A stretch of 64,000 nt of DNA from Candidatus Dormiibacterota bacterium (GCA_963718525.1 OY970355.1:3104001-3168000); one strand, 5' to 3'; counted from the first letter of the stretch, positions 13,859 to 44,977 are shown. Made by a program: numbers and translations. Notes: generated from the letters alone by a model not told the origin.

Positions 13859-13875
13859 TGATATTGTCGCTATCA
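13859..13875. promoter_or_regulatory. Island motif TGATAT-N5-CTATCA
   Basis: TGATATtgtcgCTATCA immediately before the hemerythrin ATG. Confidence 0.65.
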
Positions 13876-13876
13876 A

Positions 13877-14392
13877 ATGAGCACCACCCGCGTCACCGAT
13901 GTCATCCGAATGGACCACGTGTGGTTCCGCAATCAGTTCACCGCGCTCGGTGACGCGCGCGGCGATGTTGCGCGACTGACTTCGATCTGGGCCGCGCTGT
14001 CAACTCGCCTGGAGGTGCATGCGGCGGCCGAGGAGACGCTCTTCTACCCGCGGTTGCTCAAGGACGACCCCGATGCGGTCGATGACACCAAGGATGCGGT
14101 GAGAGACCACAACGAGATCCGAGACGCGATACGCAACGCCGAGGGGCACAGCGTCGGGGACGATCGATGGTGGCACGCGGTCAACGACACCGAGAAGGCC
14201 AACGACGAGCACATGGACGAGGAAGAACAAGGTCCGCTGCTCGAGTTCGACGATGCTGCGTCCACCGCCGAGCAGGCTGAGCTCGCGTCCGCATTCACGG
14301 CGTTTGAAGCAGAGCATGCAGGGGCTCGGGGTATAGCGGTAGTTGACAAGGACCCGGACGAGTACGTCGAGGAGATCATCGACGAGAGCTGA
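13877..14392 (+). CDS. Hemerythrin/HHE cation-binding protein
   Basis: DH...VHAAAEETLFYP...DHNEI...EHMDEEE. Confidence 0.88.
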   Translation: MSTTRVTDVIRMDHVWFRNQFTALGDARGDVARLTSIWAALSTRLEVHAAAEETLFYPRLLKDDPDAVDDTKDAVRDHNEIRDAIRNAEGHSVGDDRWWHAVNDTEKANDEHMDEEEQGPLLEFDDAASTAEQAELASAFTAFEAEHAGARGIAVVDKDPDEYVEEIIDES

Positions 14393-14413
14393 TCCGGTAC
14401 GACGACGACACAG

Positions 14414-14468
14414 CCGTATAGCTTGTCTGGCAGCTAAGTTGACACGACTGGTGCCGGGTCACTAAGCT
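14414..14468 (+). promoter_or_regulatory. Promoter of candidate sRNA A
   Basis: CCGTATAGC-N16-TTGACA(14439-44)-N18-TAAGCT(14463-68); same layout as the promoter at 23487-23541. Confidence 0.65.
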
Positions 14469-14473
14469 CCTGA

Positions 14474-14562
14474 GGTCGACGGTCGAGAGGTCGTCGTCCC
14501 CACCCCCTCCCAACGAGTCCACCCCGCCGGGATCAAGGTCCACGGCGCGGGTGGACTCTTCG
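14474..14562 (+). ncRNA. Candidate sRNA A (hairpin, C-rich anti-SD tract, terminator hairpin)
   Basis: CGACGGTC-GAGA-GGTCGTCG stem, CCCCACCCCCTCCC, GAGTCCACC...GGTGGACTC stem; paralog at 23393-23480. Confidence 0.6.
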
Positions 14563-14571
14563 GTTTCGCGG

Positions 14572-15765
14572 TCAGGCGAGTGGGAGGACGACGGTGAACG
14601 TGCTCCCGCCACCCGGGGTCGCGGTGACCGCGATGTCGCCCCCGTGGAGCCGAGCGGTCTCACGGGCCAGGTAGAGGCCGAGGCCGGTCCCGCGAATGTG
14701 GCTGGTTTCAGGCGTCACCAGGCGGCCGAACCGGCTGAAAAGCAGATGCGCCTGCTCGGCGTTGATGCCGATCCCGTGGTCGCGAACGACGATGCTCATG
14801 GCTCTGCCGTCATCTTCGCAGCCGATCTCGATCGTCCCACCCGCAGGCGAGTATTTGATCGCGTTGTCGATGAGGTTGGTCAACATGGTGGTGAGGCGGC
14901 GGCGGTCGGCGACAACGGCCACCGAGTCGCGCTGCGTGGTCACAGCGAACCGGTGCTCTTCGCTCATCAGCGGACGCATCGACTGCACGGCATCCTCAAT
15001 GACCCTGAGCAGGTCCAGGGGTTCGAGCTCGAGCTCGAGTCCGAGGGTCTCGAGCCGGGCGGTTTCAAGCATGTCTGAGATCAGTCGCGCCATCTCTTCG
15101 GCCTTCTCGGTGATGCGGCTGAGCGCCACGCGTCGCTCTGCAGGAGGCAACACCCCCTCGCCGAGCATCGATGAGTACCCCCTGATGATTCCGAGAGGGC
15201 TTCGAAGCTCATGCGCGGCGATGTTCAGGAACTCGCTCTTGAGCCGCTCGAGGCGCCGGCTGCGTTCGGCCTCCTGGAGCAGCTCGTCGGCCATCGCGGC
15301 CTGGCTGACTCCGTGACCAACGATGCCGGCAAGCGACTGCAACGTGCCGCGAGCATCGGCGCTGAGTCGGCCCTCGCCGCTGACGACGAGGAGCGCGGCG
15401 ACTCTCTCGTCGCCCCGCACCGGCACGATGACGGCGGGCGGGTCGTCGACAGTCAGGCCCGACGAGATCGCTCGGTCGAATGCAGGGTGGTCGCTGACGC
15501 GATAGGGCCCGCGAGCACTCGGCTCGACGAGGTCCGATGCCGCGACGCACGCCAGAAAATCGCCGCGGAGCAGGAGTAGCCAGGCTTGGCGGGAAATTCC
15601 AGGGGCGGATGCCAGCCGTGAGGCGAGCCTGACCGCTTCGCGGAAGAGCCGGCGCGACGCGTCATCCTGGGTGCCGGGGTCATCCGTAATGGGCGCCGGG
15701 TCCTGCACGGCGGCGAGCGCCTGCTTCAGCTTGCGGTTGGGAGCGAGGCGCGATCGCTCGTTCAA
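14572..15765 (-). CDS. GAF-domain sensor histidine kinase (cytoplasmic)
   Basis: AAHELRSPL H-box, NLIDNAIKYS, DHGIGI, GTGLGLY; start codon uncertain. Confidence 0.9.
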   Translation of the reverse strand: MNERSRLAPNRKLKQALAAVQDPAPITDDPGTQDDASRRLFREAVRLASRLASAPGISRQAWLLLLRGDFLACVAASDLVEPSARGPYRVSDHPAFDRAISSGLTVDDPPAVIVPVRGDERVAALLVVSGEGRLSADARGTLQSLAGIVGHGVSQAAMADELLQEAERSRRLERLKSEFLNIAAHELRSPLGIIRGYSSMLGEGVLPPAERRVALSRITEKAEEMARLISDMLETARLETLGLELELEPLDLLRVIEDAVQSMRPLMSEEHRFAVTTQRDSVAVVADRRRLTTMLTNLIDNAIKYSPAGGTIEIGCEDDGRAMSIVVRDHGIGINAEQAHLLFSRFGRLVTPETSHIRGTGLGLYLARETARLHGGDIAVTATPGGGSTFTVVLPLA

Positions 15766-16123
15766 CGCTCTCGGCGAGCTGCGCCGGAGTGGTGTCGGCC
15801 TTGACCAGGAACTCGAGCGCGCCTAGCTTCATGCCTCGTTCTCGGAGCTCGGGTTCGCCGTAGTTGGTGAGGATGATCACCGGGATGTGCATGGTCTCGG
15901 GGGCCGAGCGAAGGCTCTCCAGCACTTCGAATCCATCGAGGCCCGGGAGACGGAGATCGAGGTAGATGAAGTCCGGAGCTTCGTCTGCGGCCAAGCGCAG
16001 GCCTTCCTTGCCATCGCGACCAATCACCACCGAATAGCCGTCGGCGACAAGTCGCAGCCGATACATCTCCGCTGCGGCGACGTCGTCCTCAATCAGCAGG
16101 ACCTTGACGTCATCCTCCAGCAC
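15680..16123 (-). CDS. Single-domain response regulator (receiver)
   Basis: VLLIEDD, IYLDLRLP, ILTN, FLVKA; GTG after AAGGAGGAG. Confidence 0.9.
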   Translation of the reverse strand: MLEDDVKVLLIEDDVAAAEMYRLRLVADGYSVVIGRDGKEGLRLAADEAPDFIYLDLRLPGLDGFEVLESLRSAPETMHIPVIILTNYGEPELRERGMKLGALEFLVKADTTPAQLAESVERAIAPRSQPQAEAGARRRAGPGAHYG

Positions 16124-16290
16124 GTGCTCCTCCTTGGCCGTTGCAATTGGTCGCTCCCTCGGCAAATGCTACCTCCGCCTCTCGGTACGGTACCAGACAC
16201 AAAGCGCCCGTATTCACCGCACGGGTGTAGGCCCGAGGCCCTGGGACGCCACCGAGGGGCGTCCACCCCGCCGAACGCCAACCGCAGCGA

Positions 16291-16452
16291 TCAGCGAACG
16301 ACGATGCCCACTCCGAAGACGATGGTCCACGCCACGGCAAGGAAGAGTGCCATGCCGGTCACCAGGCTGCGTACGTCCAGCCTCCGACGACGCCGCAATG
16401 CGCGCAGGCGGATTCGAGGGGCAACCACCTCGTCCCGCCTTGGGGAAAGCAT
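16291..16452 (-). CDS. Small single-TM peptide (53 aa)
   Basis: Hand translation MLSPRRDEVVAPRIRLRALRRRRRLDVRSLVTGMALFLAVAWTIVFGVGIVVR*; below the ORF-track cutoff. Confidence 0.5.
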   Translation of the reverse strand: MLSPRRDEVVAPRIRLRALRRRRRLDVRSLVTGMALFLAVAWTIVFGVGIVVR

Positions 16453-16468
16453 CTCGGTCACCGCGCAA

Positions 16469-16504
16469 TGATAGCAATATCGCCGCTATCATGTTTTGTG
16501 ATAG
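16469..16504. promoter_or_regulatory. Island motif, perfect CTATCA-N7-TGATAG plus an extra half-site
   Basis: TGATAG 16469-74; CTATCAtgttttgTGATAG 16486-16504. Confidence 0.75.
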
Positions 16505-16561
16505 GATGTTCCTGCGGGGAGGACGAGGGACAGTCGCGACAATCAATTGGAGGTACGCGGT

Positions 16562-16765
16562 ATGGCTCGTAAGTACAAGCCGATACAGCTCGATGTGAAG
16601 CCGGTGGCCGGCGCCTATCTGAACGAGGCAGCCACGTGCCCGCAATGCAGCTCGCGCATCACCGAGGTGCTGGGCCGCATGGGTCTGCGGCTCGTCTTCC
16701 GCTGTGATCGGTGCCGGGTGCAGTTCTTCCGCCAGCGTGCCATCACCAGCGCAGGCCTGGTGTAA
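16562..16765 (+). CDS. Small Zn-ribbon protein, copy 1
   Basis: CPQC...CDRC; GGAGG RBS; paralog of 20829..21035. Confidence 0.8.
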   Translation: MARKYKPIQLDVKPVAGAYLNEAATCPQCSSRITEVLGRMGLRLVFRCDRCRVQFFRQRAITSAGLV

Positions 16766-16882: not shown

Positions 16883-17227
16883 ATGCCGGCTGAAACGGTG
16901 GTTCCCACGTCGGAGCGCATGCTCGATCTCGACAAGCCGCTCTACACCATCAGCGTCGCTGCCGAGATCCTCGCAAGCCATCCGCGGACGCTGATGATGT
17001 ACGAGACCATGGGTCTCGGCGTGCCGGACCGCACCGCGACCAATCGGCGGCGGTACTCGCAGCGCGACATCCTCACGCTCAGCGCCATCCAGCGGCTCAC
17101 CAGGCAATCCGGGCTGAACATCGCAGGCGCGCGCTACGTCATCAAATGCCTGCAACTCCTCGACGCGCACGGCATCCCTCGGCCGCCGGAGCTCGCCGGG
17201 ATTGACATCGAGCACGTTCGGCTCTGA
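16883..17227 (+). CDS. MerR-family (HspR-like) regulator, copy 1
   Basis: PLYTISVAAEILASHPRTLMMYE...RTATNRRRYSQRDI...GLNIAG. Confidence 0.88.
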   Translation: MPAETVVPTSERMLDLDKPLYTISVAAEILASHPRTLMMYETMGLGVPDRTATNRRRYSQRDILTLSAIQRLTRQSGLNIAGARYVIKCLQLLDAHGIPRPPELAGIDIEHVRL

Positions 17228-19034
17228 TCTGCAGCCGCATCCGCCGGAGACCACGTTCGCCGGGTCGATCGAAGCGGACCTGGTCTCGCGTGGCGATCCC
17301 CACCAGATCATGGGGAGCCTGGTTCGTTTCGCGGCAGAGAACATCGATGTGGACCGCTGCACGCTCACCAGCCTGGACCAGGACGTCCTGCGGGTCGAGG
17401 CCAGCTACCAGCGCGGCGGCCCACCGGACTTCGTCGGGCACGAATACCCGCTGACCTGGCTGGCGAGGCAGCCATTGCTCCAGCAGGCGGTGGAGACCGG
17501 GTCGATCGTCCTCGGTGGCAGCCTCGGTCATGGTGGCAACGCCGATCCCGATCTCATCCCCGCATTGATTGCAATGCACCACACGGCCATCGTCCCGCTG
17601 TCCATCGGCGAGACGGTCGGCGCGGTGCTCATCCTCAGCCGGAGCAGCGACCGCCCATTCGTCCCCCACGAGCTGGCGGGTCTCCAGGAGGTCGGGCTCC
17701 TCGCGATCCTGGCCCTCCGCAACGCGCGCCTCGTCGAGCAAGTGCAGAGTGCGCAGAGTCGCGGCCTGGACTCCCTGACGCAGATGTCGCGCCACGTTGC
17801 CTCCAGCGTCGATCCGGCGACCTTCTTCGACAAGATGAGCGACACGATCGCTGGACTCGTCGGCGCGGAACGCGCGGGCTTCTGGCAGCTGACCGGGACG
17901 CAACTTGTGCCGATGCACCAGACGCCACCCAGCCCCGGCGACTCGCTGGACGCGCCGGAACGCCGCGTTCTCGATTCCGAAGGGGACCAGGACCTCGAGA
18001 AACTCCTGTTCTCGGGTCAGGCCCTGCGACACAGTGATGGTGACGCTGGCGCAGCGCGTGCGGATTCGCTGCTCACGCGGCTCGGGGCTCGAGACGTGCT
18101 CGCGGTTCCGTGGCGAACAGCCGCGGTTCCGCTGGGGATCCTGGCAGCCAGCAACTCCCAGTCGGGTTTCACCGATCAGGACGAATGGGTCATGCGTCTC
18201 GCCGCCCGCGCCTCTGCGCTCGTCTGGCAGGGCTATGCGGCGGAGCAGCGCGCCCAGGGGCTCCAGACGACCGAGTTGGACCGCCTCGAGGCACACGCAC
18301 ACCGCATGGCCGATCTCGAGCGCCAGAAATCAGAGTTCCTGCAACTGGCATCACACGAGCTCCGTGCACCGATCACCCTTGTGAGCGGCTACCTGTCGAT
18401 GCTCGAGGAGGGATCGCTCGGCGAGCTGCCCGAGCCAGCCGCGAAGGTTGTGCCGCTGATGACGGCGAGGATGCGGCATATGAGCCAACTCGTCGACCGC
18501 ATGTTGACGGCAAGCCGGATGGAGAATCGTGCTCGCGGCCAGAACGCCAAGGACGTCAGCGTTGCCGCGCTCGCGCGGGCCGTTGCGGCTTCGGCCGCGC
18601 ACTCGCCCGACGGCAGCTCACCCAGGGCAGTCCGCGTCAAGTCGGAGGGACGGGTCCGAATGCGTGTGGACCCGGAGCAGGTCGAGACGATCCTCGGCAA
18701 TCTCGTATCCAATGCGATCAAGTACTCCGCCGACGGCAGCGACGTGACAATCACCATTCGCGAGGAGCCGAGATGGGTGGCCGTCGAGGTCTCAGACCAC
18801 GGTGAGGGCATCCCCGAAGAAGACCTGCCAAAGCTGTTTCAGCCGTTCGGCCGGCTCTCGAAGGCGCTCGCCGCCGGCATCCCGGGCACGGGTCTCGGTC
18901 TGCACCTATCTCGCGGCTTGGCCCAAACCCTGGGCGGGGACATCGAGGTCACCTCTCGTCCGGGCGAAGGGAGTACATTCACGCTGCGCCTGCCGCGCGG
19001 ACGCAAAGGGCCAGCGGGGAGAATCCATGCCTGA
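17202..19034 (+). CDS. Dual-GAF sensor histidine kinase (cytoplasmic)
   Basis: Two GAF-like regions, ASHELRAPI, NLVSNAIKYS, DHGEGI, GTGLGL; start uncertain. Confidence 0.9.
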   Translation: MTSSTFGSDLQPHPPETTFAGSIEADLVSRGDPHQIMGSLVRFAAENIDVDRCTLTSLDQDVLRVEASYQRGGPPDFVGHEYPLTWLARQPLLQQAVETGSIVLGGSLGHGGNADPDLIPALIAMHHTAIVPLSIGETVGAVLILSRSSDRPFVPHELAGLQEVGLLAILALRNARLVEQVQSAQSRGLDSLTQMSRHVASSVDPATFFDKMSDTIAGLVGAERAGFWQLTGTQLVPMHQTPPSPGDSLDAPERRVLDSEGDQDLEKLLFSGQALRHSDGDAGAARADSLLTRLGARDVLAVPWRTAAVPLGILAASNSQSGFTDQDEWVMRLAARASALVWQGYAAEQRAQGLQTTELDRLEAHAHRMADLERQKSEFLQLASHELRAPITLVSGYLSMLEEGSLGELPEPAAKVVPLMTARMRHMSQLVDRMLTASRMENRARGQNAKDVSVAALARAVAASAAHSPDGSSPRAVRVKSEGRVRMRVDPEQVETILGNLVSNAIKYSADGSDVTITIREEPRWVAVEVSDHGEGIPEEDLPKLFQPFGRLSKALAAGIPGTGLGLHLSRGLAQTLGGDIEVTSRPGEGSTFTLRLPRGRKGPAGRIHA

Positions 19035-19410
19035 TGGGTCACATGCGATACGGCTGTTGCTCGTCGACGACGATGCCGACGTCGCCAGCATGTACGAGCT
19101 GCAGCTGTCTGCTCACGGCTTCGACGTCATCAGGGCTAATTCCGGCAAGGAGGCCATTGATCGTGCCAGCACCGAGGCTCCTGATCTGATCTACCTCGAC
19201 CTCGGATTGCCGGAGATGCACGGGCTCGACGTCCTCAAGGAGTTGCGCTTGGATGCGCAGACGGCCGATATCCCAGTGGTCATCCTCACCAACTACAGCG
19301 AACCCGAGCTGATGGAGCGTGGCCGCCAGCTCGGAGCGCACGATTTTCTGATCAAAGCCCACACGCCGCCCGCCGCCCTCGCGGAAGCCACCCGAAGGTG
19401 GGTCTCGTGA
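19027..19410 (+). CDS. Single-domain response regulator
   Basis: LLLVDDD, IYLDLGLP, ILTNYSEPEL, FLIKA. Confidence 0.9.
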   Translation: MPDGSHAIRLLLVDDDADVASMYELQLSAHGFDVIRANSGKEAIDRASTEAPDLIYLDLGLPEMHGLDVLKELRLDAQTADIPVVILTNYSEPELMERGRQLGAHDFLIKAHTPPAALAEATRRWVS

Positions 19411-19769
19411 CTGATTCGACGTCTCCGGAGGATTCGGAGGCAGAACCCGATCACCAGGAGGCTCGAGAGGCAGCGCTCGATGCCGTGGAGCCGGTGCGCC
19501 TGCTTGAGGGCGAGGACGAGGACACCATGTATGTCGATGATGCCGTGCACTGGACGAAGGTGTACGCCGAGCTCCTTGACTTCAAGGCGAGCCTGCTGAC
19601 CGTTGCCGAGCATCGGCTGCCATCGATGGATGACGATGCCGAATCGGAGGTCAGGGAGACCGACCTCAAGGTGCTCAAGGCCGAGGCGGCTCGATTCGAG
19701 CGTCGCCTGGAGTTCTGGCGCGAGCGCGCTCGCGAGCTCAAGGCAGGCTCCGTTACCGATCCTCAATAA
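19407..19769 (+). CDS. Hypothetical acidic helical protein
   Basis: GTG overlaps the receiver stop; RLLEGED...HWTKVYAELLDFK...RRLEFW. Confidence 0.7.
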   Translation: MTDSTSPEDSEAEPDHQEAREAALDAVEPVRLLEGEDEDTMYVDDAVHWTKVYAELLDFKASLLTVAEHRLPSMDDDAESEVRETDLKVLKAEAARFERRLEFWRERARELKAGSVTDPQ

Positions 19770-19930
19770 ATCCAGGGGCGGCGGTTGCGCCACGTCACCG
19801 GGCGTCAACGCACGTATCGCAAACCATCTCATGGCGTCTCCGGCGTGACGCCGGTAGCGTCTGATTAGCCACGGGCGCCGGCGAACGAGGGTGGCCGCGT
19901 CCAGAGAGTGGGACTTGGAGGATTGGTGCC

Positions 19931-20680
19931 GTGCTGACTGTGGAGACTCCGCGAAAGGACACGAGCGCGCTCCGGCGCCTCGGTGCATTGCCCGCGACAG
20001 CGCTGTTCCGCCGCCGTGAGCAGGTCGCCCCGACGCCTCCTCCAGCATCGGGCATCGCCTGCACGATGCGTGGTTGCAGCAACGACACTGCCCAGCTATG
20101 TGCGTACCGTGATCGTCGCGACCGCTCCTGCACGGCCACGATCTGCCGTGCTCACGCGATCTCGCTTGGCGGCCGAACGTATTGCCGCCGGCACGCCGGC
20201 ACCGTGCAGGCGATCGGTGATCTGGCTCGGGACCAGAGTGCACACCCCGACGTCGACGACAGAGCTCCGTCGCTCGTGGACTGGATCGGCCGCGACATCG
20301 ACAGGGGCATCCGGACTCTGCTGGCGCGCGCCGCGCGCCCGGGCGAAAGCGTCATCGCCGATGAGGCTGCCCGGCTCGCCCACGACTTCCGCCGCAATGC
20401 CCGGTGGGAGCGGAGCTGGCGACTGATCGAGAGCACCGGCCCGATCCTCAACGTGACGCTGCACGTTGCGCAGGATGACGACTCGCTCGTGCACGTCAGG
20501 GTGGGAACCGAGGCGGTCGCGGACGGCGTACCTCCATGGATCGCCCGGCGCCGTGACGGGCAGGACGTCGAGGCAGCCATCGATATCTCCCAGCGACGGC
20601 TCTTCTACCGGTACCTCGAGGAGACGATCTCCGAGGCGGTGGCCCGGTTCCGCGACCGCTCCGATCGTATCGCCCAGTAG
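19931..20680 (+). CDS. Hypothetical protein with N-terminal Cys/His (B-box/AN1-like) metal finger
   Basis: CTMRGC, CAY, CTATICRAH, YCRRH; GGAGG upstream. Confidence 0.7.
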   Translation: MLTVETPRKDTSALRRLGALPATALFRRREQVAPTPPPASGIACTMRGCSNDTAQLCAYRDRRDRSCTATICRAHAISLGGRTYCRRHAGTVQAIGDLARDQSAHPDVDDRAPSLVDWIGRDIDRGIRTLLARAARPGESVIADEAARLAHDFRRNARWERSWRLIESTGPILNVTLHVAQDDDSLVHVRVGTEAVADGVPPWIARRRDGQDVEAAIDISQRRLFYRYLEETISEAVARFRDRSDRIAQ

Positions 20681-20742
20681 GAGCGGCGGCGGGGGTCACC
20701 GCCCCTCGAACGCGAACGCCCCACCATGGCTGGAGCGTAGTG

Positions 20743-20772
20743 TGGTAGTATTACTATCATCTTTTCTGATAG
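20743..20772. promoter_or_regulatory. Island motif TGGTAG-N5-CTATCA-N7-TGATAG
   Basis: TGGTAGtattaCTATCAtcttttcTGATAG upstream of Zn-ribbon copy 2. Confidence 0.75.
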
Positions 20773-20828
20773 CTTGTAGCCGACTCTTGCGCACGGTCGC
20801 CGGAGCGGTGCAGTCCGGAGGTAGCGCG

Positions 20829-21035
20829 TTGCCACGTAGATACAAGCCGGTCCATCTCGACGCAAAACCGGTCCCCGAGGCATGGCTGCAAGAGTTGGCA
20901 ACCTGCCCCCAGTGCGATTCCCGGCTGACCGAGGTGCTGGGGCGCATGGGCCTGCGTCTGCTGTTCCGCTGTGCGCAGTGCCGGGTCCGATTCTTCCGCC
21001 ACCCCAAGCCCACCGCAAGCGCGAGGTTCGTCTAG
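20829..21035 (+). CDS. Small Zn-ribbon protein, copy 2
   Basis: TTG after GGAGG; ATCPQC.SR.TEVLGRMGLRL.FRC..CRV.FFR shared with copy 1. Confidence 0.8.
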   Translation: MPRRYKPVHLDAKPVPEAWLQELATCPQCDSRLTEVLGRMGLRLLFRCAQCRVRFFRHPKPTASARFV

Positions 21036-21036
21036 C

Positions 21037-21381
21037 TCAGACCTTCACGTGCTCGACGTCGATCTCTGTCAGTTCGGCGGGACGCGGGACCCCATGCGCA
21101 TCGAGCAGCTGGAGACAGAGGATCAGGTAACGGGCGCTGATCAGATTGAGCCCGTATCCGCGAGTGAGTCGCTGAATCGCGCCAAGGGTGATGATGTCGC
21201 GCTGCGAGTACAGTCGACGGTTGCTGGCAGTCCGGCTGGGGACGACCAGGCCGAGATGCTCGTACATCATGAGCGTCCGCGTATGCGTGGCAAGGATTTC
21301 CGCCGTGATGCCGATCGTGTACAGGGGCTTGTCGAGGTTCAACATCTTGACCTCGCTGGTCGGAGCTGCCGCGCGTGTCAT
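21037..21381 (-). CDS. MerR-family (HspR-like) regulator, copy 2
   Basis: 114 aa, close paralog of 16883..17227 (LDKPLYTI, RTLMMYE, YSQRDI, CLQLLDAHG.PRP). Confidence 0.88.
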   Translation of the reverse strand: MTRAAAPTSEVKMLNLDKPLYTIGITAEILATHTRTLMMYEHLGLVVPSRTASNRRLYSQRDIITLGAIQRLTRGYGLNLISARYLILCLQLLDAHGVPRPAELTEIDVEHVKV

Positions 21382-21401
21382 CTGTGACGACGAATCCGCA
21401 A

Positions 21402-22376
21402 CTACGCTGCGCGACGCCTGGCGTGCACGCGCAGGCGCACCACCGATCCCATCTCGCGCGACGAGCGCAGTTGCACGAGATCACAGAGCTGGTTGGCGGT
21501 CCAGAGGCCGCGTGCCCGAGTAGGATCCGCACCCGGCTGCTGCCGGTCGACAAGCGGGTCGCTGATCACGCCACGATCGGAGATCTCGCATACAACATCG
21601 CCATCGTCGAACCAGATCCGCGCGACGCCGCTCCCGGCGCCGTGGGTGACGCTGTTGGTTGCGACTTCGCTGACCGCGAGAATGAGGTCGTCAAGCCGTG
21701 CGGCGGAAAGCCCGGCGCGGGCGCCCTGAGTCGCGACCAGCGCGCGCAGTTCTCCGAGCGTGGCCGCTGTGAAGGACATCTCGGCGACGACCGTGGCGGG
21801 AGGCGCGAACGGCGATGAACGCGGAGCGCTTGGAGCCTGAAACTCCTCGCGACCACCGTCGCGTTCCGCCGAGACGGCCCCGCGGCTGTTGCCGATCACG
21901 GGGTGCGTCGTCCGCGCACCCTTGATGACTTCTGGATCGAGACCGGCGACGTCATATGGGCAGATCAGCCAGAAGCCTTGCACGCCGGCAAACGCCCGGT
22001 TGATGAGGGCCTCGTGCCACTGGCATTCCTCGAGGTGGACAGCAGAGCGACCAGGCCAGATCGGCTCGCCGACTCCGCGCATCCGCACGGCACCGGAGTG
22101 AGCGCCCGCGACAGCGAATTCATCCCACGCTGGAATGATCCGCGCGGGGTTCGCCCCGACGATCCGCATGTCGCGATATTCGACGAGCCCATCGTCGACG
22201 CCGCCGACACGCGCGCGGAGCGCGTCGATCTTGGGACCGCTGACCATCACCAGAGTCGGGTCCCCGGCGGCGATGCCATCGGTGATGAACTGCGCGACGT
22301 TTTCGACGAACTCGCTCTCATCTCTGTAGAAAACGGCCTCGTGGCGGAAGTCCGCGATGCTCGTGTTGCTGCTCAC
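21402..22376 (-). CDS. MEDS sensor + HATPase anti-sigma factor (RsbA/RsbW-like)
   Basis: FRHEAVFY, GVGEP, WLICPYD (MEDS); AVSEVATNSVTHG, ISDRG, RGLW (HATPase_c_2). Confidence 0.9.
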   Translation of the reverse strand: MSSNTSIADFRHEAVFYRDESEFVENVAQFITDGIAAGDPTLVMVSGPKIDALRARVGGVDDGLVEYRDMRIVGANPARIIPAWDEFAVAGAHSGAVRMRGVGEPIWPGRSAVHLEECQWHEALINRAFAGVQGFWLICPYDVAGLDPEVIKGARTTHPVIGNSRGAVSAERDGGREEFQAPSAPRSSPFAPPATVVAEMSFTAATLGELRALVATQGARAGLSAARLDDLILAVSEVATNSVTHGAGSGVARIWFDDGDVVCEISDRGVISDPLVDRQQPGADPTRARGLWTANQLCDLVQLRSSREMGSVVRLRVHARRRAA

Positions 22377-23326
22377 CTCGCTCCCCCAGCTCCGGTGTCG
22401 GCTGGGGCTGCAGATGCGTTTCGCACGAGCCCGGCAGCGCTCATCGCTCGCTGAAGACGCGGCTGGATGCCGCGCAGCGTCACGTGTCCCGCAGCCTCGG
22501 CCGCGACGAGCATGCGCAGGCCGGCGACCGAGCAGAAGGTGACCGCGGAGAGATCGATGGTGACCGCAGGGTGGCTGCCCGTGGCGTTCTCGATCGCTTC
22601 GCCCAGCGCATCGATGTTCGCCTCGTCGATGCTTCCCACCAGACTCAGATTCGGGCCGTGGGAGTGCGAGATCAGCAACCCTGCGGTCGCCACGACATCA
22701 CCCTCATGCGCTCCCCCGAAACCCTCGGGTCGGAGGATCGAATCTTCGTCCGCCGACGGCAGGTCGAGGCGCGAGCTGTGCTGCCATTCGCCGAGCACGT
22801 GCGCGGCGCGCGCCGTGAGATCGATCGGTGAGTAGCCGATGTCGGCGATCCGATCCGCATACTTTGTGATGAACGCGCTGAACTCCGCCACAAACTCACG
22901 GACCACCGCCGCGAGCGCGGCTCGTGCTGCGCGATCATCCGCTGGGGCCGCGAGCGCGGCCGCCTTGGCAGTGATCAATTGCCTGAGCGAATCCGGGTAG
23001 AGCCGCTCGAACTCGGCGTTGAGCGTCCGCAGCACCTCGATCCGTCCCGGTCCCATCATCGCTAGCCAGCGCATCCTCTCGAGGTCGGAACCGAGTGCGC
23101 AGCGCGGGTAGAACTGATTCGTGGCGAGCTCGCCAACCATGAGATGTGCGCACGCGACATGCGTTCCGAGCGGCTTTCCATAGGAGGTGGCCGCGATGAA
23201 CTGCGCACGTTGAAACGCGGGGCAGTCGGGGCTCAAACTGTCGAAGCTAGGACCGAAACGGCACCGATCTCGTGGCTCCTGGTCCTTCGATGTGCGTGCC
23301 ATCTGGCGCTTGGAAAGAATGGCCAT
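22373..23326 (-). CDS. Cys-rich N-terminal domain + STAS (anti-anti-sigma) domain
   Basis: C-terminal LVGSID...IDLSAVTFCSVAGLRML (phospho-Ser motif); N-terminal CRF, CPAF, CAHL, RCALG. Confidence 0.78.
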   Translation of the reverse strand: MAILSKRQMARTSKDQEPRDRCRFGPSFDSLSPDCPAFQRAQFIAATSYGKPLGTHVACAHLMVGELATNQFYPRCALGSDLERMRWLAMMGPGRIEVLRTLNAEFERLYPDSLRQLITAKAAALAAPADDRAARAALAAVVREFVAEFSAFITKYADRIADIGYSPIDLTARAAHVLGEWQHSSRLDLPSADEDSILRPEGFGGAHEGDVVATAGLLISHSHGPNLSLVGSIDEANIDALGEAIENATGSHPAVTIDLSAVTFCSVAGLRMLVAAEAAGHVTLRGIQPRLQRAMSAAGLVRNASAAPADTGAGGAR

Positions 23327-23392
23327 CGAGCCAGCTCAGGCCGGCACGCGGTCGATCATGATAGTGAGTGTATACCGTGCGGCCAGCCGCCG

Positions 23393-23480
23393 AGAAGAGC
23401 TACCACCCCGGCCGGGGATGACCCCCGGCAGGGTGGGCTTTGGGGAGGGAAATTCGAATGCCGGTGGAATAATCCACCCA
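23393..23480 (-). ncRNA. Candidate sRNA B (paralog of A)
   Basis: Minus strand: GGTGGA-TTAT-TCCACC stem, TTTCCCTCCCCAAAG, CCACCCTGCCGGGG...CCCCGGCCGGGGTGG stem, CTCTTC tail. Confidence 0.6.
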
Positions 23481-23486
23481 GAGGTG

Positions 23487-23541
23487 ACTCTATCAGCCTG
23501 GTAGACCTGCTGTCAAGCAAACTTATAACATGGCTATACGG
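23487..23541 (-). promoter_or_regulatory. Promoter of candidate sRNA B overlapped by the island motif
   Basis: Minus strand CCGTATAGC-N16-TTGACA-N18-TAGAGT; TGGTAG-N5-CTGTCA 23499-23515 and CTATCA 23490-95 overlap it. Confidence 0.65.
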
Positions 23542-23571
23542 ATAGTGATCTCGCCAGGTTCGCGCACGAGG

Positions 23572-23937
23572 CTAGGCATCACGGAGATGCACAGCTGCCT
23601 CCTCCGCGGGAGGCTCGTCGTCGACGTCGACACCGAGTGGGTCGGGCTCGGCGAGGGCGACACCGTCCTCTCCGGTCTCACCGTCGATCAATTCGGCTCG
23701 CTCCGGAAGGTTTGTTTCGACCGCTGAATCGGGTTCCTCCTCGGCGAGCCGCTCGTCGAGGGTCTCGCGGACGTCAGGATCGACGATGCGGCGCGCCGCG
23801 AGGTCCCGGGCGTCGGTCTCATCGCCGACCACCTCGGCTGGGTCCGGTTCGACGGCACCAGGGATCAATGCGTCGTCGTCCGGCACGTCGTTCGATGGCA
23901 GGTCTTCCGGGTGGGGGCCGGGGTTGTTCGAACTCAT
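23572..23937 (-). CDS. Acidic DUF5709-like protein
   Basis: ETLDERLAEEEPD and PAEEAAVH motifs. Confidence 0.7.
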   Translation of the reverse strand: MSSNNPGPHPEDLPSNDVPDDDALIPGAVEPDPAEVVGDETDARDLAARRIVDPDVRETLDERLAEEEPDSAVETNLPERAELIDGETGEDGVALAEPDPLGVDVDDEPPAEEAAVHLRDA

Positions 23938-24041
23938 GGTGCTATGCAATCAGATCCATACGTGCCGGCGGGCCGTGCCGTCCGCCGGGGCCTCTTCAAT
24001 CAGGCTGCCACGCTGATACTCGCGCTCTATTCACATCCTTC

Positions 24042-24060
24042 CTATCAGTTTCGCTGATAA
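24042..24060. promoter_or_regulatory. Island motif CTATCA-N7-TGATAA
   Basis: CTATCAgtttcgcTGATAA, 7 bp before the receiver start. Confidence 0.7.
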
Positions 24061-24067
24061 TAGCTTT

Positions 24068-24475
24068 GTGGACGACGACGTGAAGGTCCTGTTGATCGAG
24101 GACGACGCGGCTGCCGCCGAAATGTACCGGCTTCGGCTGGCCGCTGACGGCTACACAATCGTCATCGCGCGAGATGGCGAGGAAGGGTTGCGGATGGCCT
24201 CGGAAAACTCACCCGACTTCATCTATCTCGACCTGCGTCTGCCCGGGCTCGATGGCTTCGAGGTCCTCGAGCGGCTCAGGGGGGATCCGGCCACGACACA
24301 CATCCCGGTCATCATCCTCAGCAACTACGGCGAGCCGGAGTTGCGCGAGCGAGGCCTGAAGCTCGGAGCGCTGGAGTTCCTGGTCAAGGCGGACACGACA
24401 CCAGCGCAGCTGTCCACAAAGGTCGGGCAGTCCCGCGAGCCGCACGCGATCCCCTCGGGAGACGCGCCCCGCTGA
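24068..24475 (+). CDS. Single-domain response regulator (close paralog of 15680..16123)
   Basis: DDVKVLLIEDD.AAAEMYRLRL.ADGY, IYLDLRLPGLDGFEVLE, FLVKADTTPAQL. Confidence 0.92.
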   Translation: MDDDVKVLLIEDDAAAAEMYRLRLAADGYTIVIARDGEEGLRMASENSPDFIYLDLRLPGLDGFEVLERLRGDPATTHIPVIILSNYGEPELRERGLKLGALEFLVKADTTPAQLSTKVGQSREPHAIPSGDAPR

Positions 24476-24491
24476 GGGTCTCCGTGTTGTG

Positions 24492-24522
24492 CCGGCGGCT
24501 GCCCCGGAGAGCCAGCCGCCGG
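24492..24522. terminator. GC-rich hairpin between convergent genes
   Basis: CCGGCGGCTG...CAGCCGCCGG. Confidence 0.55.
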
Positions 24523-24613
24523 ACTTCACGCCCCGTGCTTCAAACGGTGGGATCGGATATCGCTCCTATCCAAGTTCATGATAGTGCTGCTGTACTGTTC
24601 GCCGCAACAAGCG

Positions 24614-25858
24614 CTAGGCGCCGTGGGGCACCGGCTCGGTGTGCACCCCCTCCTCCTCCACCGCTCCGACCTCTTCCCCGAGCCGGGGCAGGCTGTCGAC
24701 GCTGACCGAGTCGCCGGGGGTCGTGGTCATAGGCTCCTCACCGCGCCTGGCGCGGTAGAGGGCTCCCAGGAAAATGTTGCCCACGGCTGCGATGGGAACA
24801 GCGAAGAGCGCACCCAGGATTCCCGCCAGCTCGGCACCGACGAGCAGCGCCGCCATGGCCACCAGGGCGTGGAGGCGCGTCACCCGGCCGTAGATCCGAG
24901 GCCCGAGCAGGTACGCGTCGATGGCATGGCCGGCTAGGCCGATGCCGCCCGCGAAGAGTGCGAGTGCCGGACTCTGCACCAGGGCCACCAGAACGGCGAG
25001 CGCCATGGCCACCACCGCGCCGACGATGGGAATGAACTCCAGGAAGAACGCGGCAATGCCGATGAGAATCGCGTATCTGACGCCGATGAGAGTCAGCGCC
25101 ACCCCGGTGTACGTCCCGATGATGAACGACATCACCACCTGCCCGCGAACGTATGCGGCAACCGTCGATCCGATCGCGAGCGCCGCAAAGTCGAACTCGC
25201 GCTGATGATTGGGAGCGAGGTTGCGTGCAGTTGCGACCACCGCTCGTCCTTCGATGAGGAGGTAGATCGAGATGACCACCACCAGTACGACACTCACCAC
25301 TCCCGAGACGAACGCTGCGACAACGCCGAGTGCCACGCCGATCTGCTGACCGTTCAGGGTGTTGATCAACGATGTGAATGAGTAGGAAATCCCGTGCTGT
25401 CGCAATTGATTCTCGATCGTCGAGAGGAGCATCGGCAGCTGCTTCGCCTGCGCGATCACGGTCGGAAGCACCAGCACGATTGCGCCGGCAATGATCGCGA
25501 TCCCGACCCCGTAGAGCAGCAGCACCGCGAAGGAACGATGGCCGCGAAACGGTCGGATCCGCTCCATCGCGTCCACGAGCGGAGTCAGGATGAGTGCGAG
25601 GATTCCTGCGAAGACGAAGAGCAGCAGAACATTGAAGATGTGGACGAGGATGAATGCCGCACCTTCGAAGATCCAGATGAGCGCCAGGATGATCCCCAGC
25701 CATACCAACGCTTTCAGGGAGCGGCTTTCCCAGAGTTGGGAGCGCATCGACCGGCTCGCCGAGGCCGCCTGTGATCGTCGCGGCGTGGCGCCGTCCTTGG
25801 CCGCGCGCCGCCGAGCAGGTGACGAGGATGCGGTTCGCTTAGACGGAGACGTGCTCAA
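24614..25858 (-). CDS. AI-2E family (PerM/YtvI) transporter
   Basis: ILALILTPLV, YVRGQ, EFIPIVG, GILGALFAVPIAA. Confidence 0.9.
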   Translation of the reverse strand: MSTSPSKRTASSSPARRRAAKDGATPRRSQAASASRSMRSQLWESRSLKALVWLGIILALIWIFEGAAFILVHIFNVLLLFVFAGILALILTPLVDAMERIRPFRGHRSFAVLLLYGVGIAIIAGAIVLVLPTVIAQAKQLPMLLSTIENQLRQHGISYSFTSLINTLNGQQIGVALGVVAAFVSGVVSVVLVVVISIYLLIEGRAVVATARNLAPNHQREFDFAALAIGSTVAAYVRGQVVMSFIIGTYTGVALTLIGVRYAILIGIAAFFLEFIPIVGAVVAMALAVLVALVQSPALALFAGGIGLAGHAIDAYLLGPRIYGRVTRLHALVAMAALLVGAELAGILGALFAVPIAAVGNIFLGALYRARRGEEPMTTTPGDSVSVDSLPRLGEEVGAVEEEGVHTEPVPHGA

Positions 25859-26010
25859 GGTTGAAGCTGTAGACTATCAGTAAAGCTGACATTGTCAGTG
25901 TAGATTGTTGCGCTCAACTGCGTACGTGGGAGCAGGTCTACATTCAGCAATGTGTATCTTGGTGATATAGTCGATATCATCAAAATGGCCGGTCATTCAC
26001 TCGCGTAGCT

Positions 26011-32611: not shown

Positions 32612-32653
32612 GTATCAATGCAGCTATCAGCATGTATGCAAGTGATTCTATCA
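32612..32653. promoter_or_regulatory. Degenerate island-motif array in the treY/glgX divergent promoter
   Basis: GTATCA 32612, CTATCA 32624, TGCAAG 32637, CTATCA 32648 (N7 then N5 spacing). Confidence 0.55.
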
Positions 32654-35806: not shown

Positions 35807-36481
35807 ATGTCGACCGTGACTGACCCCAGCCTCAAACCCCGAGCCCGGTTGAGCCGGCAGCGGGTGCTGCGCGCCGCCCTGGAGCTCGCGGACGAGAGCG
35901 GGATCGAGGCCCTCACCATGCGGCGCCTCGGTGAGCGGCTTCAGGTCGAGGCGATGTCGCTGTACAACCACATCGCCGGCAAGGACGACATCCTTGATGG
36001 AATCGTCGATCTCGTCTTCAGCGAGATCGTTCTGCCCCAAGACGTGGCCGACTGGAGGACGGCGATGCGCCAGCGAGCGATCTCCGCACGGGATGCCCTG
36101 CTACGCCACCCGTGGGCCACGAGCCTGATGCAGTCTCGGTCCCAACCGGGTCCCGCGACGCTCCGCCATCACGATTCGGTGATCGGCAGCCTGAGGAGGG
36201 CAGGATTCACGATCGACGCGGCCGCCCATGGATTCTCTGTCATGGATGGTTACATCTACGGCTTCGCGCTGCAGCAGGTGAATCTGCCGTCTCACACCTC
36301 CGAAGAGAGTGCGGCGCTCGCGGAGAGCATCCTGCGTGACCTCCCAGCGGAGCAGTACCCGCATCTCGCCGAGATGATCGTCGAGTACGCGCTCAAGCCA
36401 GGCTACGACTACGCGAAAGAGTTCGAATTCGGACTTGATCTCATCCTGGACGGCCTCGAGGGACTTCGGGGAATCAACTGA
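35807..36481 (+). CDS. TetR-family regulator (TetR_C)
   Basis: LTMRRLGERLQVEAMSLYNH; EFEFGLDLILDGL. Confidence 0.93.
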   Translation: MSTVTDPSLKPRARLSRQRVLRAALELADESGIEALTMRRLGERLQVEAMSLYNHIAGKDDILDGIVDLVFSEIVLPQDVADWRTAMRQRAISARDALLRHPWATSLMQSRSQPGPATLRHHDSVIGSLRRAGFTIDAAAHGFSVMDGYIYGFALQQVNLPSHTSEESAALAESILRDLPAEQYPHLAEMIVEYALKPGYDYAKEFEFGLDLILDGLEGLRGIN

Positions 36482-39449: not shown

Positions 39450-39454
39450 TTCCT

Positions 39455-43322: not shown

Positions 43323-43405
43323 CCGCGTTCGTTGGTCGTTCGTTGATCCTCAGCCAGACGGACGGACGCGGTCAGCGTAGCGCAAGTCGCCTCAGCTGCC
43401 GCTCG

Positions 43406-43648
43406 TCACCCAGCTGCCGCCGACATCGACGGGGTGACTCGACGCCGGATGGCCGCGAGGATGCGGAGTGCGAGCTCAGGGCTGTCCGTCACGGTCAATC
43501 GGTACATGCCGGTCTCGTTGGTGCGCGGCTCGATCCTGATCACACGGAGGCCGGCATCCTGCAGCGCCGCCAGCATTCGGGGCACGCCGCCCTGACGGTG
43601 CGGCGTTGTCTCCATGATGTCACTGTCCCTGACGTCGATCGCGAGCAT
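43406..43648 (-). CDS. Small ACT-like domain protein
   Basis: PHRQGGVPRMLAALQDAGLRV...YRLTV pattern. Confidence 0.5.
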   Translation of the reverse strand: MLAIDVRDSDIMETTPHRQGGVPRMLAALQDAGLRVIRIEPRTNETGMYRLTVTDSPELALRILAAIRRRVTPSMSAAAG

Positions 43649-43740
43649 TGCTCATTCCCCTATCGCGGTTGGATCACGGTCGCATCATGGCGGTCACTTC
43701 CTGTCGACTTCGTGAGCAACCTGCTGCAGAGGGATTCCAG

Positions 43741-44091
43741 ATGTACGTCGGATCAGTGGTGATCGATTGCAACGACTACGCCTCCATGTATGCCTTCTGG
43801 ACGGCAGCGCTGGGCTACGTCCCTCGCGATCCACCCGACGACGGATGGGCGGTGCTGTGCGATCCGGGGGGAAGGCGCGTCAACGTCTCACTCCAGCGAG
43901 TTCCGGAGCCGCGGGTCGGCAAGAACCGGCTCCACCTCGACCTGTACACCGACGATCCGGTGGGTGCGGTGAGGCGCCTGCTCGGCCTGGGGGCGACGCG
44001 CCATCCAAGAACACCGGAGCCGGGGGAGGACTTCGTGACGCTGCTGGATCCCGAGGGCAACGTCTTTGACGTGATCGACAAGTCCGGCTGA
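43741..44091 (+). CDS. VOC/glyoxalase-like protein
   Basis: VVIDC, FWTAALG, KNRLHLDL, DPEGNVF. Confidence 0.9.
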   Translation: MYVGSVVIDCNDYASMYAFWTAALGYVPRDPPDDGWAVLCDPGGRRVNVSLQRVPEPRVGKNRLHLDLYTDDPVGAVRRLLGLGATRHPRTPEPGEDFVTLLDPEGNVFDVIDKSG

Positions 44092-44200
44092 AGGCGGGGG
44101 AACAGAACTTCCAACCTCGCGTGTGCGTTCAATGAAGGACGGCCCGGCGTCCCGGGGCCACGGGCAGCCGGGATTGGATGGGTATGCGTGCGGTGATCAT

Positions 44201-44914
44201 GTGGTGAGGCATGGCAAAGTCAGCGCCGGGTGTTCGGCGATCGCTCTGGCGGTTGCGCTCGCGTCCTGCAGCAGCGCACCAGCGCCCCCACCTCCGACGA
44301 GTTCAGCCCACAACACACCGTCCGCCGCGCCCCCGTCGATCGCTCCGACTGCGACGCCGAGCGCGGCGCCGACCCCAACATCCATCGCTCCACCGGTTGC
44401 GGCCGTCGTCACCTCCAACGAGCCGACGTGCGCGGGCGCCCAGCTGCAGATTGCTTATTGGCCGGGGCTCAGCGGCGGGGGCGCCGGCACCATCGGGATT
44501 TCGCTCGCGATCTGGAATCACGGCAAGCGCCCGTGCAAGCTCAAAGGCTGGGCGACACTGCAATTCCTGAACAGCGCAGGCGGACTCGTCCCCACCCACT
44601 GGGTGGAAACGACTTCGATCTTCACCGGAAGTTCCGACGTCCTGCCGATCGCTGTCAGCCTGGTCACCTGCACGCAGCCCAATTGCACGAACGCGGCTCC
44701 CGCCGCATACATCAGCTTCGACGGTGATGACGTCTTCAGCCCGTGCGAGACGGCCGACGGAATCCGCGTGAATACTCCGGGGTCGTCGACGCCCGTATTC
44801 GTGAATTTGCGCAGTGGGAACTGGCCCCATGGGCAGACGTTCTGTTCAGCCGGAAAGATATTCGTTCTGCCGGTTCAGTCCCCGGTCGAGGCACTCGGCC
44901 CCACGCTTTCCTGA
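44201..44914 (+). CDS. Lipoprotein with DUF4232-like domain
   Basis: Lipobox ALASC, Pro/Thr linker, C...GAGT...N....C.L.GW. Confidence 0.7.
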   Translation: MVRHGKVSAGCSAIALAVALASCSSAPAPPPPTSSAHNTPSAAPPSIAPTATPSAAPTPTSIAPPVAAVVTSNEPTCAGAQLQIAYWPGLSGGGAGTIGISLAIWNHGKRPCKLKGWATLQFLNSAGGLVPTHWVETTSIFTGSSDVLPIAVSLVTCTQPNCTNAAPAAYISFDGDDVFSPCETADGIRVNTPGSSTPVFVNLRSGNWPHGQTFCSAGKIFVLPVQSPVEALGPTLS

Positions 44915-44960
44915 TCCTGCGGTTCGGCTGGCTGGCCCTGCCCGTGGGAAACTCCGCACA

Positions 44961-44977
44961 TGATAGTCTTACTATCA
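44961..44977. promoter_or_regulatory. Perfect island motif TGATAG-N5-CTATCA
   Basis: TGATAGTcttACTATCA upstream of the 45012 gene. Confidence 0.7.

Follow-up and report, generated by a model that had tools for sequence, protein, structure and literature searches.

What reads the paired hexamers TGATAG and CTATCA that recur between the genes of a Candidatus Dormiibacterota genome, and what do these pairs control? The question is raised by a 64,000-nucleotide stretch of that genome (GCA_963718525.1 OY970355.1:3104001-3168000; "the window" below means this whole stretch), in which a first-pass annotation made from the sequence alone had described a recurrent operator, a putative regulon and, as binders, two HspR-like proteins. 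We find that the motif marks a real and conserved promoter set, which reaches genome-wide and over most of the class Dormibacteria. On present sequence evidence, it is probably the operator of small MerR-type regulators that are specific to this class and belong to the GlnR/TnrA/HspR branch (1-5 matches per genome). The MerR-like paralogs are the best candidate binders, given their co-location with the sites, their phyletic co-occurrence with the motif, their GlnR-like fold, the geometry of the operator, and the lack of targets of the HAIR type, the operator of HspR.

Occurrence, spacing, and conservation of the paired hexamers

Coordinates are window positions unless marked as genome, the window being bases 3104001-3168000 of one 3.34-Mb contig with 66% GC. 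We refer to TGATAG-N5-CTATCA as the N5 form and to CTATCA-N7-TGATAG as the N7 form, and matches are counted with at most two mismatches unless stated otherwise. The N5 form occurs six times in the window (13859, 20743, 23499, 25963, 32637, 44961) against 0.40 expected, and the N7 form six times (16486, 20754, 24042, 24566, 25874, 32624) against 0.55 expected; in neither case did any of 100 shuffles reach six. Perfect matches are found at 44961 (N5) and at 16486 and 20754 (N7). Every position given by the first-pass annotation was found in the sequence, and its N5 list stands at this threshold except for 24555 (GGATAT..CTATCC), which has three mismatches and is visible only within a chain of three half-sites; the chains it described at 20743, 24555, and 32624 proved real in an array scan.

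Across the genome, genes were called with a home-made codon model (3217 genes covering 90% of the genome; 9.8% non-coding). The N5 form is present in 33 copies, 22 of them non-coding, and the N7 form in 17, of which 13 are non-coding; 35 of the 50 copies are thus non-coding paired sites, and 12 of these 35 lie inside the window, which is 1.9% of the genome. We compared these counts with a first-order Markov null trained on intergenic DNA only (60 runs). The pairs are enriched over this background: 21 N5 sites were observed against 2.55 +/- 1.55 expected (maximum of 6 in the 60 runs) and 13 N7 sites against 2.72, and at no more than one mismatch the figures are 9 against 0.18 for N5 and 5 against 0.13 for N7. 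An iterated weight matrix (score >=16) placed 31 of 31 sites in non-coding DNA, and was not used for counts since it drifted to AT-rich flanks.

The enrichment is tied to spacing. In a spectrum of gaps 0-30 in the three relative orientations of the hexamers, peaks were seen at inverted gap 5 (22 non-coding copies; 1-9 at other gaps) and everted gap 7 (13 non-coding). Direct gap 18, which is the chain, was raised too, and everted gaps 6 and 13 showed a weaker rise. Arrays of three half-sites in the arrangement TGATAG-5-CTATCA-7-TGATAG number 10 in non-coding DNA, compared with 0-5 for 24 other spacing pairs. By contrast, the lone hexamer is not over-represented (184 and 154 copies vs. about 294 per strand expected from base composition), which is a correction to the first-pass annotation. 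The non-random element is the paired arrangement. Its unit is the N5 palindrome, to which the N7 form adds a third half-site 7 bp away. Read as 5-mers, the N5 form is TGATA-N7-TATCA, which is the geometry of GlnR/TnrA boxes and of HAIR; the match to HAIR and GlnR in geometry belongs to the N5 form and not to the N7 form. Arrays of four half-sites were not convincing, the best candidates having 5-6 mismatches of 24. A separate observation concerns everted gap 6, with 15 non-coding hits, all with exactly two mismatches and none in the window; they mostly read nnATCA-N6-TGATnn (e.g., genome 159104, 617415, 2915212, and 3244127) and represent a distinct, looser palindrome class.

The sites of the window are as follows (unstranded unless a strand is given; the genes are listed further below):
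13859..13875: N5 palindrome TGATATTGTCGCTATCA, 1 mismatch, abutting the hemerythrin start codon
16469..16504: Zn1/MerR1 promoter block TGATAG-N11-CTATCA-N7-TGATAG(GAT)
20743..20772: chain TGGTAG-N5-CTATCA-N7-TGATAG, upstream of the zinc-ribbon paralog Zn2
23359..23375, minus strand: degenerate proximal STAS site GTATACACTCACTATCA, 32 nt before the STAS start codon, its block present in 7 of 8 loci
23487..23516, minus strand: predicted distal promoter P1 of the STAS operon, TTGACA, 18 bp, TGATAGAGT
24042..24060: N7 pair, 1 mismatch, between the gene at 23572-23937 (minus strand) and the receiver gene at 24068
24555..24584: weak chain GGATAT-N5-CTATCC-N7-TGATAG, 3 mismatches over 18 bases
25874..25892: N7 pair at the former promoter of a fourth MerR gene (MerR4)
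25963..25979: N5 palindrome TGATATAGTCGATATCA, 31 nt before the GAF-kinase start
32624..32653: chain CTATCA-N7-TGCAAG-N5-CTATCA, between the divergent treY and glgX
44961..44977: perfect N5 palindrome, 34 nt before the holin-X-like gene

Upstream regions of orthologous genes were aligned, with the island taken from 17 congeneric genomes. Footprinting of this kind, which had been proposed together with the motif, revealed sites conserved in 7-12 congeneric genomes between unconserved flanks (Zn1, Zn2, GAF kinase, STAS P1, and holin-X-like). The Zn1 block ATGATAG-CAATA.CA.CA-CTATCA.GTTTTG-TGATAGGATG is kept in 12 of 12 congeneric loci, all three half-sites of the Zn2 promoter in seven of seven, the GAF-kinase promoter block GTGATAtagTCgCTATCA..AAAATGG in 12 of 12, and the holin-X-like palindrome in 10 of 12 homologous upstream regions, the two exceptions being the most diverged homologs. 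At STAS P1, the N5 palindrome (23499-23515) overlaps the -35 element and the spacer, with an extra CTATCA 7 bp upstream, and all eight loci keep CTATCA-N7-(T)TGACAG-N5-CTACCA-N3-TGnTAnnCT, including the -35 and the 18-bp spacing. Strict N5 sites (at most one mismatch) occur in 2-17 copies in each of 18 other genomes of the genus, compared with 0-3 for the pattern read backward.

Only 2 of the 12 hemerythrin upstream regions from congeneric genomes have retained the site at 13859, the site at 24042 is private to the source genome (not conserved in the 12 other aligned receiver upstream regions), and the chain at 24555 has a counterpart in one relative (L008). This chain lies between convergent genes (receiver, 24068-24475; AI-2E, 24614-25747) with no target gene visible, and an uncalled small gene or RNA may be its target.

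Two further observations were made in the upstream alignments. The hemerythrin start codon stands one base after the operator (13859-13879) and lacks a Shine-Dalgarno sequence; an AGGAG box precedes the start in all 11 other aligned regions, and the two relatives that keep the site have about 75-110 nt between site and start. This suggests a deletion of the leader. In addition, a conserved leader or small-RNA candidate (23403-23486, minus strand) lies between STAS P1 and the proximal site. Its first hairpin varies in sequence between species and looks pairable by eye, its middle is a single-stranded, anti-Shine-Dalgarno-like GAATTnCCCTCCCCAAA, and a GC-rich hairpin (23403-23437) is nearly letter-for-letter the same in all eight genomes, with no compensatory changes and no Rfam match, and is unique in the genome. 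An Rfam scan of 12000-47000 gave no match at E<=1, nor did a search of 20000-26000 against a phage collection give any match.

MerR-like paralogs as candidate binders

Three MerR-like paralogs and the stump of a fourth are found in the genome:
16883..17227, plus strand: MerR1, 114 aa, GlnR/HspR-like (Pfam MerR_1)
21037..21345, minus strand: MerR2, 102 aa, last gene of the STAS-RsbA-MerR2 operon (Pfam MerR_1)
genome 777864-778217: MerR3, the third paralog, with a three-half-site chain 158 nt upstream
25839..25859, minus strand: stump of MerR4, encoding ...LEHVSV*, from alignment with relatives

MerR1 and MerR2 are 73% identical. The MerR4 gene is whole in 6 of 10 aligned relatives, where it lies between the AI-2E and GAF-kinase genes; the deletion is common to L006, L008, and L016, and the stump is joined directly to its operator-bearing old promoter. 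In this genus, every paralog is near a site: MerR1 via the Zn1 promoter, MerR2 via the STAS promoters, MerR3 near its upstream chain, and MerR4 or its stump near the site at 25874.

The best NCBIfam family for the two MerR proteins of the window is HspR, at 78.2 and 67.8 bits, which is below the 105-bit cut-off, and the best sequence match in the PDB (phmmer) is GlnR (4r4e, E 3.6e-8), with a hit to TnrA as well. An AlphaFold2 model of MerR1 built from a 45-sequence alignment (predicted local distance difference test score, pLDDT, 87) consists of a winged helix-turn-helix (HTH) and two short helices at residues 60-75 and 80-95 of 114, with no long coiled coil and no effector domain. Foldseek ranked GlnR-DNA complexes first to fourth (7tea, 4r4e; template modeling score to the target 0.80-0.87), then TnrA, with canonical MerR proteins lower. 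At their N-termini, MerR1 and MerR3 are longer by 17-20 residues, and in alignment this extension looks like the start of GlnR. The family shares a conserved C-terminal tail (...LLDAHGIPRP.EL..ID.EHV), which resembled none of the sequences it was compared with. The GlnR base contacts include an arginine that reads G4 (PMC9249791). This arginine aligns with a nearly invariant Arg of the family, and the two other base-contacting residues of GlnR are Met-Met in the MerR paralogs; the conserved Arg together with Met-Met fits a shared anchor with different remaining bases. A search for fused forms among proteins of 201-2000 aa gave no relative of MerR1 at E<=1e-8, which is weak evidence.

A whole-genome scan for HAIR gave no non-coding hit at two or fewer mismatches and only two hits, both coding. 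A scan for the CIRCE consensus identified three strong CIRCE-like non-coding inverted repeats (genome 1165222, 1723702, and 1898937-1898986); a fourth, adjoining repeat is coding by the home-made gene calls. Heat-shock genes probably answer to HrcA rather than HspR and, since there are no HAIR targets, the HspR-like MerR proteins need another target. We also observed an everted HAIR-like repeat, AGTCAAG-N7-CTTGAGT with one mismatch, between the operator chain and the MerR3 gene (genome 777722-777742; L001:7722-7742), the sole such non-coding hit at two or fewer mismatches genome-wide. The earlier suggestion that two HspR-like proteins bind the motif was right in pointing to the best candidate binders; these are, however, three paralogs plus a stump, nearest to GlnR/TnrA and below the HspR cut-off.

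The phyletic distribution was examined in 91 genomes of the class, which were grouped by presence of the protein (E<=1e-10) before the motif was counted, with the reversed pattern as control. Where the MerR family is present, the tallies by taxonomic family are:
f1, 18 genomes: motif 102, control 2
f3, 26 genomes: motif 118, control 10
f5, 11 genomes: motif 62, control 3
f4, 26 genomes: motif 57, control 14

Four unpublished genomes are counted here, namely G194 and G209 (f1), G239 (f3), and G247 (f4); without them the values are 96/2 for f1, 115/10 for f3, and 52/14 for f4, and the conclusions are unchanged. In 10 genomes (all eight of f2 and both of genus g7 of f1), the search at E<=1e-10 found no member of the MerR family; together these 10 contain 2 motif copies and 3 controls, i.e., the control level. 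Outside the class, the motif tracks the control (e.g., 20 vs. 21, 15 vs. 18, and 9 vs. 9, in a sample that includes the unpublished G068).

Among 12 comparison loci from other genera and families, the MerR-receiver(-MerR) arrangement is conserved in seven (L035, L036, L038, L039, L040, L043, and L046, from f1, f3, and f5), and in three of five f4 loci MerR stands beside a zinc ribbon instead. The zinc ribbon itself was rejected as binder on its distribution: it was found in none of the 26 genomes of f3, a family with motif enrichment, and in all 11 genomes of the f4 genera g112 and g113, which show no such enrichment, although the 67-aa query is insensitive. As a side observation, a TATACT box, and not the palindrome, is common to the distant MerR upstream regions.

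Putative regulon genes, predicted promoter overlap, and rival explanations

The genes that the sites flank in the window, together with a TetR-type gene that has no site beside it, are:
13877..14392, plus strand: hemerythrin-domain protein, target gene (Pfam)
14572-15765, minus strand: histidine kinase (Pfam)
15722-16120, minus strand: receiver (Pfam)
16562..16765, plus strand: Zn1, 67-aa zinc-ribbon protein, first gene of the MerR1 operon (Pfam)
17202-19034, plus strand: GAF histidine kinase (Pfam)
19027-19410, plus strand: receiver (Pfam)
20829..21035, plus strand: Zn2, paralogous 67-aa zinc ribbon with TTG start, 64% identical to Zn1, missed by the gene caller
21402-22376, minus strand: RsbA-family anti-sigma-type kinase (Pfam MEDS+HATPase_c_2; NF041045 at 315.5 bits, above the cut-off of 210)
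22373-23326, minus strand: STAS-domain protein, upstream neighbour of the RsbA gene (Pfam STAS)
24068-24475, plus strand: receiver (Pfam)
24614-25747, minus strand: AI-2E transporter (Pfam)
26011-28422, plus strand: GAF histidine kinase (Pfam)
28337-30172, minus strand: treZ (NCBIfam equivalog above cut-off)
30169-32580, minus strand: treY (NCBIfam equivalog above cut-off)
32685-34874, plus strand: glgX (NCBIfam equivalog above cut-off)
35807-36481: TetR_C_1-type gene (Pfam)
45012..45569, plus strand: holin-X-like membrane protein, target gene (Pfam PF07332)

Near sites, the window thus contains three histidine kinases (two with GAF domains), three single-domain receivers, and, by their NCBIfam equivalogs, the treZ/treY/glgX genes of trehalose synthesis from glycogen. 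Elsewhere in the genome, sites are found near a second hemerythrin, CsbD, DUF6458, DUF6131, DUF6582, and DUF6789 proteins, GT2 and GT4 glycosyltransferases, MMPL, Nramp, a Rieske membrane protein, a REC-PAS kinase, and the third MerR paralog. A gene-family scan of the flanking genes identified no chaperone gene beside any site and no nitrogen-assimilation gene among the 60-odd genes scanned. In a genome of another genus of the same family (G190), which has 10 strict sites, a hemerythrin homolog lies directly downstream of one site and a DUF6582 homolog of another, and zinc-ribbon, holin-X-like, receiver-containing, and TreY homologs are within 0.1-1.5 kb of four more. The identity of the flanking genes suggests a putative stress or dormancy regulon. 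Three island genes have no Pfam or NCBIfam match (123, 249, and 121 aa; 19398-20680 and 23572-23937), and the 17 congeneric loci contain no homolog of the 121-aa one. Just past the last operator (45591-47676), a LysR-type regulator gene is divergent from a phosphoribulokinase gene, which suggests a Calvin-cycle operon.

Many sites overlap predicted promoter elements. A half-site with the three bases that follow it, TGATAGYNT, is an extended -10 (TGnTAnnnT), and 15 of the 22 non-coding N5 sites have an A/T pair at the centre. In 13 of the 22, TAnnnT is spelled by one arm, which faces the nearest or only gene in 10 cases, away from it in two, and no gene in one, and a distance of 31-37 nt between palindrome and start codon recurs at five sites. 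Promoters other than STAS P1 have no recognisable -35. CAAAAT was considered as the GAF-kinase -10 and dropped for TGATATAGT in the distal arm. An operator placed over the core promoter, with an arm as extended -10 or, at STAS P1, over the -35 and spacer, means that a bound protein should shut the promoter. At the one-directional promoters (holin-X-like and GAF kinase), the proximal arm is conserved, yet it holds no -10 on its own strand, and on these grounds we interpret the palindrome as the site of a dimer covering the -10 and +1, hence a repressor site. From these predicted promoter and start positions, we infer that control is by repression.

In the mechanism that we propose, a weak dimer would read TGATAGY-N3-RCTATCA as GlnR reads TGTNA-N7-TNACA, with the conserved arginine of the recognition helix contacting G. 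About one third of the sites have a third half-site 7 bp on, with a resulting period of 24 bp, and this half-site probably seeds an adjacent dimer that binds cooperatively. The operators would sit over the core promoter: in many of them, the extended -10 would be formed by the gene-distal arm with three further bases, and the gene-proximal arm would cover the predicted start, so that the 31-37 nt would be leader. The genes under control may be a stress or dormancy set together with the signalling machinery of the regulators themselves. The conserved C-terminal tail invites control by a partner, as in TnrA/GlnR, for which the receivers and, in this genus, RsbA would be the obvious candidates. 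A complex prediction of receiver (alignment A2) with MerR (alignment A1) gave no answer (score 0.00), which speaks neither for nor against binding. A more far-reaching version, which we regard as rather unlikely, is a dormancy or stress programme without a dedicated sigma factor, run by a new GlnR/HspR-like repressor branch whose half-site mimics the extended -10. Here, the same winged HTH might build the 24-bp-period arrays from inverted N5 and everted N7 dimers, phosphorylated single-domain receivers might release it via the C-terminal tail (the MerR-receiver-MerR trio is conserved in three families), and the STAS-RsbA partner switch of this genus might have a MerR-type protein, not a sigma factor, as its output.

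Several points weigh against MerR-type proteins as binders of this operator. All coding and non-coding labels depend on the home-made gene calls. Residues 1-18 of the MerR1 model have no secondary structure (pLDDT 51-79), and the N-terminal dimerisation helix of TnrA/GlnR is not evident. Lone everted N7 pairs (e.g., genome 759256) misfit a simple GlnR-type dimer. The phyletic co-occurrence comprises two independent absences only, related genomes are not independent, and any gene lost along with the regulon would give the same pattern. Family f4 is patchy, genera g112 and g113 having a regulator with the same recognition helix and only 0-1 strict sites. In the 12 distant loci, the MerR and MerR-receiver operons have no upstream site at two or fewer mismatches, apart from an N7-like site in L035, and autoregulation would therefore be a trait of this genus, not of the class.

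The last two points would also be expected if the operator were real and bound by a different regulator encoded elsewhere, with the MerR genes being members of the regulon and not its master. A Crp-type gene (genome 2864654-2865430) and a TetR gene adjoin sites with two mismatches; these are, however, the weakest sites listed. No other conserved DNA-binding domain is encoded in the island, where the receivers are single-domain, the geometry and TG anchor suit readers of the GlnR/HspR type, and the motif falls to the control level in all 10 genomes without the MerR family. We give a different regulator a minor share of the probability. It is improbable that the motif is a promoter element only, i.e., an extended -10 TGATAGnnT used by a housekeeping or alternative sigma factor, with palindromes as back-to-back promoters. 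The arms that read TGnTAnnnT, mostly toward a gene, would fit such an element, as would the lone TGATAG resembling a -10 at STAS P1 and Zn1 and the position of 10 of the 22 N5 sites between divergent genes. Both arms are nevertheless conserved before a single gene at the holin-X-like and GAF-kinase loci, where the second arm lacks TAnnnT on its own strand; a dimer site needs both arms, and a promoter does not. The sharp N5 spacing peak and the symmetry of the arms are typical of a dimer site, and the sole SigB/F/G-type sigma gene above cut-off (genome 2512072-2512890), next to a 151-aa gene and 0.6 Mb from the STAS-RsbA-MerR2 operon, has no copy of this word in its vicinity.

A TetR-type operator is suggested by the hexamers, which are those of tetO2 (TCCCTATCAGTGATAGAGA, containing CTATCA-N1-TGATAG; PMC11686294), and by the TetR_C_1-type gene in the window. 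That gene has no site beside it, though, and everted gap 1 is not enriched (none at one or fewer mismatches; 3 non-coding of 13 at two or fewer), which makes this reading highly improbable. Chance, AT-rich intergenic bias, or a dispersed repeat is refuted by the controls and retains a negligible probability. Intergenic DNA is indeed slightly richer in AT (64% vs. 66% GC), and the weight matrix drifted towards AT-rich flanks, but the null trained on intergenic DNA alone yields 2.6 sites where 21 are seen, the same hexamers at other spacings are flat, and all 19 congeneric genomes give low counts for the reversed pattern. In addition, the sites are conserved at orthologous genes, and flanks differ from site to site.

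The result is a regulatory code that is concrete and testable: a single operator, a single candidate family of regulators, and some 25-35 sites in each genome. It connects this code with CsbD-type stress proteins, hemerythrins, the synthesis of trehalose, and a large island of two-component and partner-switching genes. Dormibacteria, which are abundant in soil and uncultured, are believed to survive through dormancy. In literature search listings, we found nothing in print on gene regulation in Dormibacteria and nothing specific on the motif, on Dormibacterota regulators, or on receiver-MerR systems. Receiver or anti-sigma-type proteins may control a regulator of this MerR branch.

Comparison with known systems

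The operator shares the hexamers CTATCA and TGATAG with tetO (PMC11686294). It differs in arrangement, tetO being everted N1 and the sites here inverted N5 or everted N7, and TetR belongs to another protein family; the two operators resemble each other by coincidence.

In the Streptomyces rsbB-rsbA-sigB partner-switching operon, a STAS protein gene and an RsbA-family kinase gene are followed by a regulator gene. The order is the same here, with the difference that the third gene is MerR2 and the operon contains no sigma factor. Canonical MerR activators (MerR, CueR, SoxR, BmrR) have their operator within a -35/-10 spacer of 19-20 bp. They share with the system described here the MerR_1 winged HTH and an operator inside the core promoter; at the predicted STAS P1 promoter, however, the spacer is 18 bp in all eight loci, and the modelled protein lacks the long antiparallel coiled coil and effector domain and matches these activators at lower rank in fold.

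HspR is the best NCBIfam family of the window proteins, and its operator HAIR, CTTGAGT-N7-ACTCAAG (PMC6102357), is likewise an N7-spaced inverted repeat with TGA in the same register. In both cases the sites overlap promoters, which implies a repressor. According to the same paper, Helicobacter pylori HspR loads cooperatively as several dimers, about 70 bp holding three dimers at about 23 bp per dimer, which is similar to the 24-bp period seen here. By contrast, the proteins described here score 78 and 68 bits, below the 105-bit cut-off, their genes are not in a dnaK operon, non-coding HAIR is absent from the genome, and the regulon has no chaperone genes, which CIRCE-like sites seemingly cover.

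TnrA and GlnR are the closest in solved sequence and fold. They bind TGTNA-N7-TNACA (PMC4335299), and a weak dimer forms on DNA, with the C-terminal tail as a partner-binding sensor (PMC4335299 and PMC9249791). Their boxes in Bacillus, Staphylococcus, and Listeria have the same 17-bp 5-N7-5 core, and both are small, coiled-coil-less winged-HTH proteins with the G-reading Arg conserved. The operator here differs in having A instead of T as third base and in specifying the fourth and sixth bases (TGATAG), and the proteins differ in having Met-Met at the two other base-contacting positions. In addition, among the 60-odd flanking genes we saw nothing that ties the system to glutamine synthetase or nitrogen genes; receivers, a zinc ribbon, and STAS-RsbA are found as neighbours instead, and extra half-sites occur at N7. 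If the MerR-type proteins do read this operator, they would represent a third specificity class in the coiled-coil-less MerR branch, after GlnR/TnrA and HspR. In the GlnR/TnrA box, in HAIR (cT-TGAGT-N7-ACTCA-Ag), and in TGATA-N7-TATCA, the TG stands at the same distance from the dyad.

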